Sequence record: PP400785
Strand: one strand, 5' to 3'
DNA from: Escherichia phage FL08
DNA: 64,000 nucleotides
The notes under the pieces were generated by a model. That model was not told the origin of the DNA, did not search any database, and was given only the letters and a program-made list of their open reading frames with translations. Shown here in pieces: positions 13,304 to 18,812 of this stretch. Position 1 is the stretch's first letter; each line of letters opens with the position of its first letter. Position numbers and translations under genes: made by a program.

Positions 13304-15352
13304 TTATCCTTGAACGAACTTGTAAGGCATGTTTGTAATATCTATGCAAGACGCAATAATTCCAAGAGATGATTCTACTTTCTGTTTAACATTTGATGAA
13401 ACAAATGATGCAAAGTCAACTCTATCTTCTATATCACCTGTCATTGTAACTACTTCGCCGGTTTCCATTAAACGGTCACCGTCATAAATTACTGATTCGG
13501 TGAGTTCTTCGGTGGTCATAACTTCAGCTTGAATAAGCTTGTTGTTAGTTTTGACTGTTCCATCATTGTAAGATGCATCAGTTATTTTATTAACTTTGAC
13601 CATTAATCCACGTGGCAAAATGACTTCCATTTCATTTGAAGGCGCTAAACTTCCACCGGGTAAAACAACATTGACTTTATCAGCCCCAGTAATAACCCAT
13701 CCAATTCCGACTAAATTATCGCTAGAATTAACAAGCCCTTCATCATTTTTATCGATAGAAATGTTTAGACGCTTTTCATCTGGTAAAACACCAACAGCTG
13801 AATCAGTCATCCAAGTACCAAAAATGTTTGGATATAATGATGTTGATACAAAATTTCTAAAATAAAAAACTCGATTTTTTACCATTGCTTCGTATATTGA
13901 AGGTAACATTCGTTGTGAACGATACAAAGTAATACCTTTTGGTAATCGTTCACCATTTTTAAAGGCTGAATCTAAATTATCAATAGCTTTTTCTATGTCA
14001 GATGCTGTCAAAATACTTGTACGCTCATCTGGATTATATAATCCCAAAAGAGCATTATTTATGTCTACATATCCTGAACCTACGTATTCACGAATTCCGC
14101 GTTTTTGTGCTGGTGTGTATTTAGATGAATCTTTATTTTCGACTATAGGATGTAATGACCATCCAGCTGTAAGAGCATATCCACGTAATTCTCTTCGAAT
14201 AATCTTTGTTTTTATTGCATTCCAAGAATTTTGTACTAACTCATTTGCAGCATCTTGGTTTAAATGCGAATGTTTGTTAATATTTCTTTCAAACCAAGCA
14301 CCTTTATATTTTTCTAAAGTATCATCGACGATAGAAGCAATAGTTTCTAAAGTTTTTATTGAAGTAATAGATTCTTTTCGTAATTTTTCTAAAGCTTTAT
14401 TTTTTATTTCTGCATTAATAATGGATTCTTTATCTTCAGGAATTATAGAAGCTTCTCTGAATGCCATCCCAGCTGTAACACTGCTAAGAGCATTCTCTAG
14501 TGCAAATCCTGAAGTAGAAATTACCGTTAATTCATTAGAATCAGAAATTAAAGGCGCATCAGCGGGTTTATTTAATTCTGCTGCTGAAGCCTCAAATTTT
14601 TGAAACATCGGTGTTTCAAATCTAGAAGATTCCAATGACTGACTTTGTGCAATTGCTCTACGGGAAATTTTAACTTTAACGATTACAGCTTGGTCAGAAC
14701 GTTTATCATTTTCTTGTGCAATAGATGCTGCAATTGCCTCATTTTTGGTTACTTGAGCTCCGGTATCTTTATTGATATAAACATCACCGACCTTCGATTC
14801 AACTTTAGTAAAGAGCTCGGTACTAATTTCCGGAACTCCTGGAATGTCTTCTAGTGATACATTTTTGCGATGTATAAGAATATATGCATACTTTTTATCA
14901 TAATCCCAGAGTTCCTTAAGAAGGACGTATCTGCCACCTGAACGACTACGGATAAGTCTATCAGCAATAACTTGAATTTGTCGAGCTTGACCAGCGGTTT
15001 TAGACTTAAGAATACGAAGCATACAAGCATCAATTTTATACTGACGCATTGTTTGCATTGCAACAGTAAAAACTGAATTGATATAATTAATTGGGCTTGG
15101 ACCAAGACCTTTTAATTTAGCAATTGAACCTTTAGCGGTTAATGTAAAAGGAACAATATGCATCATTTTATCGCCCATTTTTAAATCGCGATTAGTATCA
15201 CCTCCAGATGTATAGGTACATAAACGAAAGCCTGGTTGTTCAATTGCATCATCAACATGAACTGAAAAAATTTGCGGTATTTTCTTCTTTGGATTTAAGT
15301 TTGTAATCGGAAGAGTAGTATCTTCGTCAAATAATTCTGTAATAAGTTCCAT
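13304..15352 (-). CDS. alt: Alt ADP-ribosyltransferase (capsid-packaged, injected)
   Basis: 682 aa from second Met (track ORF starts MM); N-terminus MELITELFDEDTTLPITNL matches T4 Alt; motifs LYRSQ, FVSTSL, EMEVILPRG; late promoter upstream. Confidence 0.9.
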   Translation of the reverse strand: MELITELFDEDTTLPITNLNPKKKIPQIFSVHVDDAIEQPGFRLCTYTSGGDTNRDLKMGDKMMHIVPFTLTAKGSIAKLKGLGPSPINYINSVFTVAMQTMRQYKIDACMLRILKSKTAGQARQIQVIADRLIRSRSGGRYVLLKELWDYDKKYAYILIHRKNVSLEDIPGVPEISTELFTKVESKVGDVYINKDTGAQVTKNEAIAASIAQENDKRSDQAVIVKVKISRRAIAQSQSLESSRFETPMFQKFEASAAELNKPADAPLISDSNELTVISTSGFALENALSSVTAGMAFREASIIPEDKESIINAEIKNKALEKLRKESITSIKTLETIASIVDDTLEKYKGAWFERNINKHSHLNQDAANELVQNSWNAIKTKIIRRELRGYALTAGWSLHPIVENKDSSKYTPAQKRGIREYVGSGYVDINNALLGLYNPDERTSILTASDIEKAIDNLDSAFKNGERLPKGITLYRSQRMLPSIYEAMVKNRVFYFRNFVSTSLYPNIFGTWMTDSAVGVLPDEKRLNISIDKNDEGLVNSSDNLVGIGWVITGADKVNVVLPGGSLAPSNEMEVILPRGLMVKVNKITDASYNDGTVKTNNKLIQAEVMTTEELTESVIYDGDRLMETGEVVTMTGDIEDRVDFASFVSSNVKQKVESSLGIIASCIDITNMPYKFVQG

Positions 15353-15375
15353 CATAGCCTCTCTAGTGTTTATTC

Positions 15376-15388: not shown

Positions 15389-15406
15389 AAAGGCCCGAAG
15401 GCCTTT
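15389..15406 (-). terminator. Hairpin / probable terminator
   Basis: AAAGGCCCGAAGGCCTTT; identical 18-mer recurs at 63318-63335. Confidence 0.5.
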
Positions 15407-15593
15407 AGTAATCTAGTGGTAAGAGAGTACGATATATTTCAAACTTTGGTCCTTTTTCATAGGCATCAAATGTTTCTGTAAATTTATTATAAGCGTATGC
15501 ATCTACAAATTCGAGAATGACTTGTGATACAGAAGTAGAAACATCTCCACCTTCTTTTTGAGCAATGACAATTGTTTCTAAGTAAGCTTTCAT
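15405..15593 (-). CDS. Hypothetical protein
   Basis: 62 aa; ATGA overlap with gene 30 stop. Confidence 0.55.
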   Translation of the reverse strand: MKAYLETIVIAQKEGGDVSTSVSQVILEFVDAYAYNKFTETFDAYEKGPKFEIYRTLLPLDY

Positions 15594-17053
15594 AAACCAG
15601 TTACCTCATGAAAATCACCAAATACATCCTCGAATGTATTAGCTTTAGTTTTATCTTCACGTAAACGAATCGCAATCGGAAGAAATAATTTAACGTAATC
15701 AGTGCGGCCATCAGATTTTAACCAACCGTTGCATTCGCACTCTAGAATTTTTCCAATATAATAATTTTGGTTTTCCATAATGCGAGTACGGTCAAGTTCA
15801 TGCGATTTTACACCGGCTTTATCTTTTAAGCCTGAACCAGCATTTACCTTAATTTTTCCACACTCTGATTCAAGAATAAATCCACCCGCTTTAGTAGGGT
15901 CTTTACGGTGAGGATAAATTCCTACAATTTTTAAATCAACATCAATTACTTCTTTAAATTTATAGAGATTTTTTGAACGAGCATTTTCCCACAATCCATC
16001 GGTATTTTTGAGAATAATACCTTCAAGACCTTGGTCAATATACTTTTTATAAATTACCTTAGCTTCATCTAGGTTATTTACTACCTGGTTTTCAATTAAA
16101 ATTACTTTATCATAACCTGATGTCATTTGTTCTAGTTTAGAAAAACGTACATCATATTTCAAACGAAATGCAGGAAGACCGTATATTTCTACCAACGGGA
16201 CATAATCCCAGACCTGAAACTTCATGCATTGAGCTTCTTTTTCAGAAATGGTTCCCTTTAAAGATTTATTGGCGATGCCATTAGATGCAGTACGTGATTC
16301 AGCTACTTCGGCGAATTCTTTAGCTTTACTAATTTCAGGATAAGCATCAAAAAGAAAATCTAGGCCTTCTGACTCCTTTTCAACTTGCTCATGGTATACC
16401 AATTCGCCATCAATTAACACACCTTCTGGATGAATCTGGCGAGCTTCTGCAGTCATTTTGATTAACTCTTCCTTAAGAAGATCTAATCCTAGATATTCAT
16501 TACCAGCTCGCGATAAAAGACGAACATCATCTAATTCATCGCCTCGGACTTCAGCAAAACACCGAGCTCCATCTGCTTTTAATTGCGCAAAGGCTGGAAA
16601 CTTGATATTCTTACTAATGCCTTTTTCATCATAAGAACTTGCCAGCATTTGAGGTTGTTCAGGAATTAAACCTGGCCAAACTTTGTTTGCAATAGATACT
16701 GAAGCACCGCATTCAAGGTCTCGCATCATCACTCGACGCAAAACTTCAACATCATCCTTTTTACCATCAGTGATATATCCAGTTAATTCCTCAATTGCTG
16801 CATTTCCAGTCAATTTCCGAGTAGCTAACGTGAATTCAATGAAGTCAAGCATATCGGTAATGGTCAGCATTCCAAAACTCTGGGTAGCAATACCAGGTTT
16901 AGGCCATTTCTTAATATAATACTGTAACCCACGAGAATAAGTCAGACGATATACTCGTTTAAGCAATTCATTATCTTTATTCTTTTCAAGAATTGCTTGC
17001 TTCTGCTTAGTTGATCCAATAGATGCTATTTCATTCAGAATTTTAAGAATCAT
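15590..17053 (-). CDS. 30: ATP-dependent DNA ligase
   Basis: 487 aa; adenylation motif KADGARC; sequence recognisable as T4 DNA ligase. Confidence 0.95.
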   Translation of the reverse strand: MILKILNEIASIGSTKQKQAILEKNKDNELLKRVYRLTYSRGLQYYIKKWPKPGIATQSFGMLTITDMLDFIEFTLATRKLTGNAAIEELTGYITDGKKDDVEVLRRVMMRDLECGASVSIANKVWPGLIPEQPQMLASSYDEKGISKNIKFPAFAQLKADGARCFAEVRGDELDDVRLLSRAGNEYLGLDLLKEELIKMTAEARQIHPEGVLIDGELVYHEQVEKESEGLDFLFDAYPEISKAKEFAEVAESRTASNGIANKSLKGTISEKEAQCMKFQVWDYVPLVEIYGLPAFRLKYDVRFSKLEQMTSGYDKVILIENQVVNNLDEAKVIYKKYIDQGLEGIILKNTDGLWENARSKNLYKFKEVIDVDLKIVGIYPHRKDPTKAGGFILESECGKIKVNAGSGLKDKAGVKSHELDRTRIMENQNYYIGKILECECNGWLKSDGRTDYVKLFLPIAIRLREDKTKANTFEDVFGDFHEVTGL

Positions 17054-17319
17054 TGTTCATCCTTCAGAGTTTGATTTACATCTCTATTATAAATCAATTC
17101 ATCATTAAGCTCAGGCAAAGACTTATGATATGCCGTTCTAACTTTATTTCCTTGCATCCAGTGCTTGACGTAAATGAAACCTTGCTCTACACATTTTTTA
17201 AAAATTCGTTCATCCTTTTGAGCACGGAACTCTGGATTACATCTAAAAAATTGATTTACGTGACCGTAATCACGTGTAGTATTACCTTCATTTTCATAAA
17301 TAGTATGAACAACAAACAT
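17050..17319 (-). CDS. Hypothetical protein (30.1 position)
   Basis: 89 aa; overlapping start/stop with neighbours. Confidence 0.6.
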   Translation of the reverse strand: MFVVHTIYENEGNTTRDYGHVNQFFRCNPEFRAQKDERIFKKCVEQGFIYVKHWMQGNKVRTAYHKSLPELNDELIYNRDVNQTLKDEQ

Positions 17320-18158
17320 TAGAATGCTCCTTGAAAAATATTATCACCACTAGTAGGTCTATTATACAAATACTCTATGCCACCAGGTTTAATATAGTTC
17401 CATGTCTGAAACGGATGTGTCTGATATGGATGATATAGATGATTATAAGGATTAACTCCAGGTGTTCTCCAGGTAGTATTCCAAGGAAAAGAATTGTTTT
17501 TAACCATCTTCTCAATTACATCTTTTATAGCTTTTTCACTATCAAAACTTTCTTTATTTTCCTTTGGTGAAAAAAGCTTATTTTCTACATCATTCCATGT
17601 ATAAACTCGCTGCGCAGTTTTTGGAATATTGTCACGCTCTCCTCGAGCCATCCAATAAACAGGAACATTTAATATTTCACTCGCATGATCGCAGTGATGA
17701 GCGAGATCGTCAATATAACAAATCACGTTATATTTCTCTTTTGCCTTTTTGAACAGCTCTTCTTTTGAAGAATCATGACCACACATCATTACTTCTGAGA
17801 AGGCACCAGGAAAAAGAGCATTCAAATTAAATTGACGATTCAACAGAGCGTCAATAGAATCACCCAATGCGGTAACAGCTACAAAATTATAATCTTCTTT
17901 TAATTTGTTAATCACACACAGGGCATCTTTATATGGAGACAAGTAACGAATAAAATCTGAACGATTGTATTTTTCAATTAACTTGACGCCAAGTTCTTCA
18001 TCACAATTAAAGAGTTTACCCGGAGAAATAAATTTCTCATCTTGGATCATTTTTAAAATATGTTCTAACGGAAGATTATATTTCTGGGCAAAATAAGGAA
18101 GGCCTGATTGCCAGCTTAAACAAACTCCATCAATATCAGTTAAAATAGTTGGCTTCAT
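17319..18158 (-). CDS. HAD-superfamily phosphatase-like protein (30.2 position)
   Basis: 279 aa; N-terminal HAD motif I ILTDIDGV; later DD acidic motif. Confidence 0.7.
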   Translation of the reverse strand: MKPTILTDIDGVCLSWQSGLPYFAQKYNLPLEHILKMIQDEKFISPGKLFNCDEELGVKLIEKYNRSDFIRYLSPYKDALCVINKLKEDYNFVAVTALGDSIDALLNRQFNLNALFPGAFSEVMMCGHDSSKEELFKKAKEKYNVICYIDDLAHHCDHASEILNVPVYWMARGERDNIPKTAQRVYTWNDVENKLFSPKENKESFDSEKAIKDVIEKMVKNNSFPWNTTWRTPGVNPYNHLYHPYQTHPFQTWNYIKPGGIEYLYNRPTSGDNIFQGAF

Positions 18159-18619
18159 AGAGAGTCTCTTAATAGGTTTAACACATCAATAAATTCAGCT
18201 TCGGTTAGTATTGTATCATCTTTTGTTAGACCACTAGCCATGCTGTGCTTCAAAACTTTTCCTTTCGAGGCTTGTAATGCATCACGAAAGCCCCTGTTTT
18301 GGATCGCTGCTTCAAAATATGCATTTGTGTATAATTCTTTCCATGCTTCGGAATATCTTGAAAATGGAACTCCAAGCCAGAAGAGGGTCCCACGGTCCTG
18401 AGCTCTAGCATAAGCTCGTCCAGCTTGTTGGGCGGCAAGCCCGGATAACCCAAATATACGTCTTTGCTGCTCAACATTTTTCACCTTGCATCCTTGGAGG
18501 AATCCTTCAAGACCTCCGAATTGAATACCATCCATGACGAAAGGCCATTGGGCGAAATTACTTAATGCGCATGATGGCCATCTAAAATTGCTTCTAATCT
18601 CTAACTCAGACATTTTCAA
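18155..18619 (-). CDS. NADAR / YbiA-like (DUF1768) domain protein (30.3 position)
   Basis: 154 aa; LSNFAQWPFVMDG...E...Q..K pattern resembling E. coli YbiA DFSNFAAWPIKVDG. Confidence 0.7.
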   Translation of the reverse strand: MKMSELEIRSNFRWPSCALSNFAQWPFVMDGIQFGGLEGFLQGCKVKNVEQQRRIFGLSGLAAQQAGRAYARAQDRGTLFWLGVPFSRYSEAWKELYTNAYFEAAIQNRGFRDALQASKGKVLKHSMASGLTKDDTILTEAEFIDVLNLLRDSL

Positions 18620-18812
18620 TACTTATAATTTCAACATCAGCCCAATGACCATAGCAAGGAAGACGAAATTCAACTGGCCAGTTAGGGTCCTTTTCTAATA
18701 TAATAGACTTAACTTGTGGTTCTTCATGTTCATCAGTATATGGATTTTTATCTGTTACTTTATATGTGACCTTAATGTATTGAATTCCAAAAATCTTATT
18801 AATTATATTCAT
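18606..18812 (-). CDS. Hypothetical protein
   Basis: 68 aa; tight overlap with flanking genes. Confidence 0.55.
   Translation of the reverse strand: MNIINKIFGIQYIKVTYKVTDKNPYTDEHEEPQVKSIILEKDPNWPVEFRLPCYGHWADVEIISIENV

Follow-up and report, generated by a model that had tools for sequence, protein, structure and literature searches.

The T4-like NADAR gene adfN (30.3) and its HAD-family neighbour 30.2 upstream of the DNA ligase gene of Escherichia phage FL08

Two adjacent genes of Escherichia phage FL08, one encoding a NADAR/YbiA-like protein and the other a HAD phosphatase-like protein, raise the question of whether both take part in the removal of ADP-ribose from phage DNA. The window analyzed in this work is a stretch of 64,000 nucleotides (sequence record PP400785). 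Both ORFs and both motifs quoted in the preliminary description of this DNA were found on its minus strand: ORF 18155-18619 contains ALSNFAQWPFVMDGIQFGGLEGFLQGCK and ORF 17319-18158 opens with MKPTILTDIDGVCLSW. Since transcription runs leftward, the pair is located upstream of the DNA ligase gene and not downstream as initially described, and 30.1 separates 30.2 from the ligase gene. The gene order along transcription on the minus strand is 30.4 > 30.3 > 30.2 > 30.1 > 30 (Table 1), and the T4 annotation has the identical order (alt, alt.1, 30, 30.1, 30.2, 30.3, 30.4). The DNA of this stretch is matched by 668 phage records (top identity 97%), with the annotation "hypothetical protein" in nearly all of them. 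The explanation that we retain with high confidence is that the two ORFs are orthologues, in a closely related Tequatrovirus, of T4 30.3, encoding AdfN, and of T4 30.2, encoding a HAD phosphomonoesterase that is not needed against DarTG1.

Table 1. Features of the alt to 30.4 region of the window.
Feature	Coordinates	Strand	Basis
alt	13304-15355	minus	ORF list and T4 gene order
alt.1 (62 aa)	15405-15593	minus	Pfam PF24647 "Phage blade protein", E 2e-29
Gene 30, ATP-dependent DNA ligase	15590-17053	minus	ORF and T4 annotation
Gene 30.1, DUF3045 (89 aa)	17050-17319	minus	Pfam PF11243, E 1.7e-61; T4 annotation
Gene 30.2 (279 aa)	17319-18158	minus	ORF list; T4 annotation
Gene 30.2 residues 196-279, low-confidence C-terminal tail, probably disordered	17322-17573	minus	
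Gene 30.2 residues 1-195, HAD core and helical C1-type cap	17574-18158	minus	
ATGA overlap, 30.3 stop TGA / 30.2 start ATG	18155-18158	minus	Read from sequence; same in T4
Gene 30.3 = adfN (152 aa), NADAR fold	18155-18613	minus	
Gene 30.4 (68 aa)	18606-18812	minus	ORF list; T4 annotation

The reading frame initially proposed for the NADAR-like ORF proved correct but its start did not: 30.3 begins at the ATG at 18613 rather than at the TTG at 18619. This start gives a protein of 152 aa, agrees with T4 and close relatives and yields the published residue numbering. It is overlapped by the final 8 bases of 30.4, ATGTCTGA. At the other end of the gene, the ATGA overlap is compatible with a translational coupling of 30.3 and 30.2; the latter would share the transcript of adfN, and its translation is probably coupled to that of adfN. 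A consensus scan also detected a near-consensus sigma-70-like site (TTGACA, 18 bases, TAAAAT) at 19799-19770 on the minus strand, upstream of 30.7, and, on the same strand and directly past alt.1, a terminator-like hairpin (15407-15388). This predicted promoter and this hairpin, which are pattern matches to consensus only, would enclose 30.7 to alt.1 in a single early transcription unit.

The 30.3 protein of the window shares 148 of its 152 residues (97%) with T4 gp30.3 and matches the full length of the Pfam model PF08010 (Phage_30_3, Bacteriophage protein GP30.3; E 6e-69, 230.6 bits for a cut-off of 36). The Pfam NADAR model PF08719 gave no match to this protein at E values up to 1; sub-threshold matches to this model were obtained for 10 of 56 multi-domain relatives (best E 1.2e-6). 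Single-sequence PDB searches retrieved nothing useful for the 30.3 or the 30.2 protein, NCBIfam yielded no match and Pfam none for 30.2; family profiles and structure prediction were required. The best PDB match of a profile built from ten relatives of 30.3 is E. coli YbiA; it is weak (E 0.055) and lies exactly over SNFA..DG..E..Q..K, the signature that had led to the NADAR/YbiA-like assignment, which is borne out by this match and by that to PF08010. The protein has the alpha+beta fold of NADARs. Its catalytic residues E36 and K43 are kept (in LEGFLQGCK) and align with the YbiA motif. This E/K pair is invariant across the ten relatives (there E38 and K45, counted from the TTG start), as is the phage-type H123, located in LKHSM. 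The C-terminal helix is intact, the protein having the same C-terminus as in T4 and the model a helix at residues 140-153 (TTG-start numbering). Together with the conserved HAD motif residues of 30.2 (see below), the PF08010 match places these ORFs and their motifs far beyond chance. Relatives of 30.3 numbered 22 in a word-indexed search versus 1451 cluster representatives in an exhaustive profile search, and this family is therefore not confined to phages.

The 30.3 gene also contains an internal ORF (18250-18477, minus strand, 75 aa, +1 frame of 30.3), which is annotated as 30.3' in T4 and matches Pfam DUF2883 (E 5e-44). This open frame is retained in close relatives, whose 30.3 is 86-97% identical, with the ATG missing in three of them, and it is interrupted in most distant 30.3 homologues. 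As its frame is not conserved past close relatives, 30.3' is probably not a real gene.

The function of 30.3 in T-even phages had been presented as not established; this statement is outdated, since the activity of AdfN has been published (PMC11825919). T4 30.3 was described as a phage NADAR whose third catalytic residue is a His (PMC11543638) and, in vitro, cleaves ADP-ribose from guanine and not from thymidine (PMC11125620). It was named AdfN (anti-DarT factor NADAR) by Johannesman et al. (Nat Commun 2025, PMC11825919). Deletion of adfN makes T4 sensitive to DarTG1, purified AdfN de-ADP-ribosylates DNA modified by DarT1, and the E36A and K43A substitutions each weaken the protein (PMC11825919). 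Furthermore, expression of AdfN rescues RB69, whose own allele carries a truncating frameshift; the C-terminal helix, which has to be intact in AdfN, is lost in this inactive allele (PMC11825919). In the independent transposon screen of the HIDEN-SEQ preprint, all insertions in 30.3 were lost on DarTG1 hosts (log2FC -7.25; bioRxiv 10.1101/2025.11.20.689424). The counter-defense role put forward for the NADAR in the preliminary description is thus supported by a 97%-identical protein that clears the ADP-ribose added by DarT1 and is required for phage growth on hosts carrying DarTG1 (PMC11825919; PMC11125620; bioRxiv 10.1101/2025.11.20.689424). Since this role of AdfN against DarTG1 is already published, the window contributes one more orthologue.

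In this mechanism, DarT1 of the host ADP-ribosylates guanines of the phage DNA and replication is blocked; AdfN then cuts the N-glycosidic bond that links ADP-ribose to the guanine, restoring the DNA and releasing free ADP-ribose. Catalysis involves E36, K43 and H123, the last of these standing where other NADARs have their third acidic residue. The activity is experimental for the T4 protein and extends to the window protein by orthology. T4 AdfN and the 30.3 protein of the window are equally long, are encoded among the same neighbouring genes, share E36, K43 and H123 and both have an intact C-terminal helix. They differ by A67S, E89P, R107K and M125I (window residue -> T4 residue), none of which is catalytic, and no functional difference would be expected from these four substitutions. 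Since it is full-length and encodes the complete C-terminal helix that the frameshifted RB69 allele has lost, the window gene would be a functional adfN by orthology.

The comparison with other NADARs delineates what is particular to this gene. Whereas DarG1 belongs to DarTG1 systems (for example the Geobacter lovleyi NADAR, PDB 8bat), the window gene has no adjacent DarT gene, its neighbours being 30.4 and 30.2, and its product is devoid of the N-terminal extension of DarT1-linked NADARs. The third catalytic position is a His in the window protein, an Asp in DarG1 and a Glu in YbiA-type proteins. The 30.3 gene is an orphan, antitoxin-like NADAR gene. Its product is just 20% identical to E. 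coli YbiA (PDB 2b3w) and to a Phytophthora NADAR (8bau); YbiA-type proteins have been tied to the damage control of riboflavin intermediates (PMC11825919; PMC11125620). Unlike DarG1, T4 AdfN fails to neutralise DarT1 when cells are not infected, and AdfN alone protects uninfected E. coli and unrelated phages poorly (PMC11825919; PMC11125620). T5 and Bas25 are only partly rescued by AdfN, and a further T-even protein has been postulated (PMC11825919). This weak protection outside T-even infection means that the described mechanism is incomplete.

The 30.2 protein of the window is identical to T4 gp30.2 at 270 of 279 residues (97%). It matches no Pfam or NCBIfam model, HAD models and the NT5C model PF06941 included; sub-threshold Pfam matches were found among its 36 relatives to Hydrolase (9/36), HAD_2 (7/36) and NT5C (6/36, best E 1.2e-4). 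It carries the four HAD motifs (I, D8-x-D10; II, T96; III, K132; IV, D150-D151). In an alignment of the 36 relatives, D8, D10 and K132 never vary, and each of T96, D150 and D151 occurs in at least 90% of the sequences. The AlphaFold model, confident for residues 1-195, displays a Rossmann-like HAD fold with a four-helix insertion between motifs I and II. The top PDB match of the family profile is the mouse 5'(3')-deoxyribonucleotidase 2jao (E 0.023), in an alignment that pairs DvDGvlvkWqSgL of the profile with NMDGVLADFESGL. A Foldseek search against viral models retrieved neighbours annotated as 5' nucleotidases, for example in the Delftia phage PhiW-14. Because of these conserved motifs, of the AlphaFold fold and of the profile and Foldseek matches, gp30.2 is filed in the HAD superfamily, as a putative member at most of the NT5C family. 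The phosphatase-like assignment made earlier from motif I is therefore confirmed by the four motifs, the modelled fold and the match to 2jao; overall, profile searches and structure prediction upheld both the NADAR and the HAD relationships.

Besides their HAD core and helical cap, gp30.2 and the NT5C family (mouse cdN 2jao, human cdN 6g2n, Staphylococcus 3bwv) have in common the motif I context D-x-D-G-V-x-x-x-[WF]-x-S-G-L. Identity with these enzymes is about 20%, and gp30.2 differs from them by a predicted extra disordered tail of 80 residues. Its model has a pLDDT of 35-49 at residues 224-279, with disorder beyond about residue 200, and the C-terminal tail varies or is absent among the 36 relatives. 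A motif, G-[IV]EYL-x-x-[RQ]PT[AS], is located in this tail at residues about 259-270 (about 17349-17384, minus strand) and was found in 17 of 100 relatives of 30.2, from several genera; it looks like a docking motif for some partner.

A helical cap in HAD phosphatases normally implies a small-molecule substrate. From this cap and from the likeness to 5'(3')-deoxyribonucleotidases, we infer that the likeliest candidate substrate of gp30.2 is a small phosphoester, namely a nucleoside monophosphate or a sugar phosphate related to it. Fold and motifs were established here, and the substrate is deduced from them; gp30.2 would be a Mg-dependent HAD phosphomonoesterase with a helical cap, nearest to 5'(3')-deoxyribonucleotidases. 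What it does during infection can be read in several ways, which differ in how well they fit the genetics of T4, the gene neighbourhoods and the fusion proteins encoded elsewhere.

The first of these readings, to which we give somewhat less than an even chance, is that gp30.2, as a (d)NMP phosphatase, serves to trim or sanitise the dNMP pool of the infected cell independently of ADP-ribose, like the nucleotidases thought to act in other phages with modified DNA. The closest relatives of gp30.2 in sequence and structure are indeed 5'(3')-deoxyribonucleotidases (2jao, 3bwv and 6g2n), the predicted helical cap would suit a small substrate, and the viral structural neighbours are annotated as nucleotidases, as in PhiW-14. 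Moreover, in the alignment with 2jao, W16, which is invariant in 30.2, faces the Phe located after motif I; in 5'(3')-deoxyribonucleotidases, this Phe stacks on the base. However, 30.2 has no Pfam NT5C match and its hhalign match to NT5C domains (probability 90%, E 1.7e-6) spans only 70 N-terminal columns, from motif I to motif II. A literature search on gp30.2, and on 30.1/30.2/30.3 with phage T4, found no biochemical report and no nucleotidase assignment of gp30.2 in T4. Furthermore, fitness is unaffected by insertions in 30.2, in rich as in minimal medium (LB versus M9, log2FC -0.10, neutral; bioRxiv 10.1101/2025.11.20.689424).

A phosphatase step could also be tied to ADP-ribose itself, as suggested by proteins in which a gp30.3-type NADAR is fused to an NT5C-type HAD domain. 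Such a fusion constitutes a single protein in P0133, and NADAR::NT5C fusions are also encoded by two viral contigs (L100:5914-6966 and L101:3430-4437), with NT5C scores of 39-55 bits for a cut-off of 24.8. Among the best 120 clusters retrieved with the NT5C domain of P0133, 14 include NADAR fusions. Another NADAR::NT5C fusion (L105:4062-4862) has a Tc-R-P/DSPc phosphatase gene on one side and an ADP-ribosylglycohydrolase gene on the other. For neighbourhoods of this type, Iyer et al. suggested that the ADP-ribose freed by glycohydrolases is processed by phosphatases (PMC9503650). These recurrent fusions hint at a phosphatase step tied to ADP-ribose removal in some systems. The fused HAD domains were considered as possible orthologues of 30.2 and rejected: HMM and hhalign comparisons identify them as bona fide NT5C domains, distant from 30.2, and an HMM of the 30.2 family searched against the multi-domain proteins of the 30.3 family gave a weak match to motif I in P0133 only.

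It is nonetheless conceivable, at a rather low probability, that gp30.2- and NT5C-type HADs are recurrent accessory partners of gp30.3-type NADARs, the fusions representing the same module and the partner being redundant in T4. These phosphatases would dispose of phosphorylated products of ADP-ribose removal or would dephosphorylate ADP-ribosylated nucleotides and so prevent their re-use, and redundancy in T4 would hide the role of 30.2 from single-gene screens. If a phosphatase step does belong to ADP-ribose detoxification, the mechanism described for AdfN would be extended. Such a step might also partly explain the poor activity of AdfN outside T-even infection, but T4 genetics disfavour 30.2 as the missing factor.

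The stronger proposal that 30.3 and 30.2 form one counter-defense module, gp30.2 being the T-even factor without which AdfN is not fully active, appears quite improbable. In this module, gp30.2 would for example clear released ADP-ribose products or ADP-ribosylated nucleotides, or localise AdfN. The overlap of the 30.3 stop with the 30.2 start, the failure of AdfN in uninfected E. coli, its partial effect for T5 and Bas25 and the T-even protein postulated from them (PMC11825919) argue in its favour, as do the NADAR::NT5C fusions and the context of the L105 fusion read with the proposal of Iyer et al. (PMC9503650). In T4 transposon data, however, 30.2 is dispensable and non-essential, with insertions at 72 of 72 TA sites, and its insertions are neutral when control and DarTG1 hosts are compared (71 TA sites, log2FC -0.12, p 0.61; bioRxiv 10.1101/2025.11.20.689424). 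In the same comparison, 30.1 and nudE gave log2FC of -0.01 and +0.11, and the only significant genes were 30.3 and 30.4, the latter with a log2FC of -1.79 (adjusted p 0.014; bioRxiv 10.1101/2025.11.20.689424). As the end of 30.4 overlaps the start of 30.3 by 8 bases, the simplest reading of the effect of 30.4 on DarTG1 hosts would be a polar effect on the expression of adfN. The distant relationship between 30.2 and the fused HAD domains also argues against a common module.

The gene neighbourhoods point in the same direction. A DNA ligase gene lies downstream of the 30.2 relative on the same strand, often abutting it, in 71 of 77 viral loci, all of which belong to T4-like phages. A 30.3 relative is found upstream within 6 kb in 36 of these 77 loci (abutting 30.2 in 19), and the module is contradicted by the 41 others, which have no 30.3 relative within 6 kb. 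In T4-like phages, 30.2 is therefore primarily a conserved neighbour of the ligase gene, which is its most conserved neighbour. AdfN does not require it against DarTG1, the most decisive reason being the neutrality of 30.2 insertions on DarTG1 hosts, though 30.2 may contribute redundantly or under particular conditions. The idea of the preliminary description that the NADAR and the phosphatase work as a pair thus finds no support in T4 genetics and, on the HIDEN-SEQ transposon data, 30.2 is largely rejected as the missing T-even potentiator of AdfN for DarTG1. We retain 30.2 as a HAD phosphomonoesterase gene located beside adfN and dispensable for its anti-DarTG1 function.

That gp30.2 would be a 3'-phosphatase healing polynucleotide ends, preparing nicks for the adjoining DNA ligase, agrees with the ligase synteny but is quite unlikely because of the cap domain and of a synteny that is confined to T4-like phages and may be inherited rather than functional: HAD phosphatases acting on macromolecules, such as Pnkp, have no cap whereas the 30.2 model has four helices between motifs I and II, PseT already does this job in T4, and hundreds of other HADs score equal to or above Pnkp.

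More distant viral contigs display other arrangements of these genes. L095:5905-7753 has no HAD gene, and a DNA ligase gene comes immediately after its AdfN-like gene. In L098:4709-6453, about 700 bp separate a 30.2-like HAD gene from the AdfN-like gene downstream of it, and in L102:5291-6447 a thymidylate-synthase-like gene abuts the AdfN-like gene. Close relatives of the NT5C domain found in the NADAR fusions are also joined with sigma-70 regions 1.2 and 2, in L106:5001-5768, P0296, P0349, P0370 and many clusters. A "sigma-70-linked NADAR" subtype has been mentioned (PMC11125620), and a bacterial neighbourhood associating NT5C, a sigma factor and a NADAR is possible.
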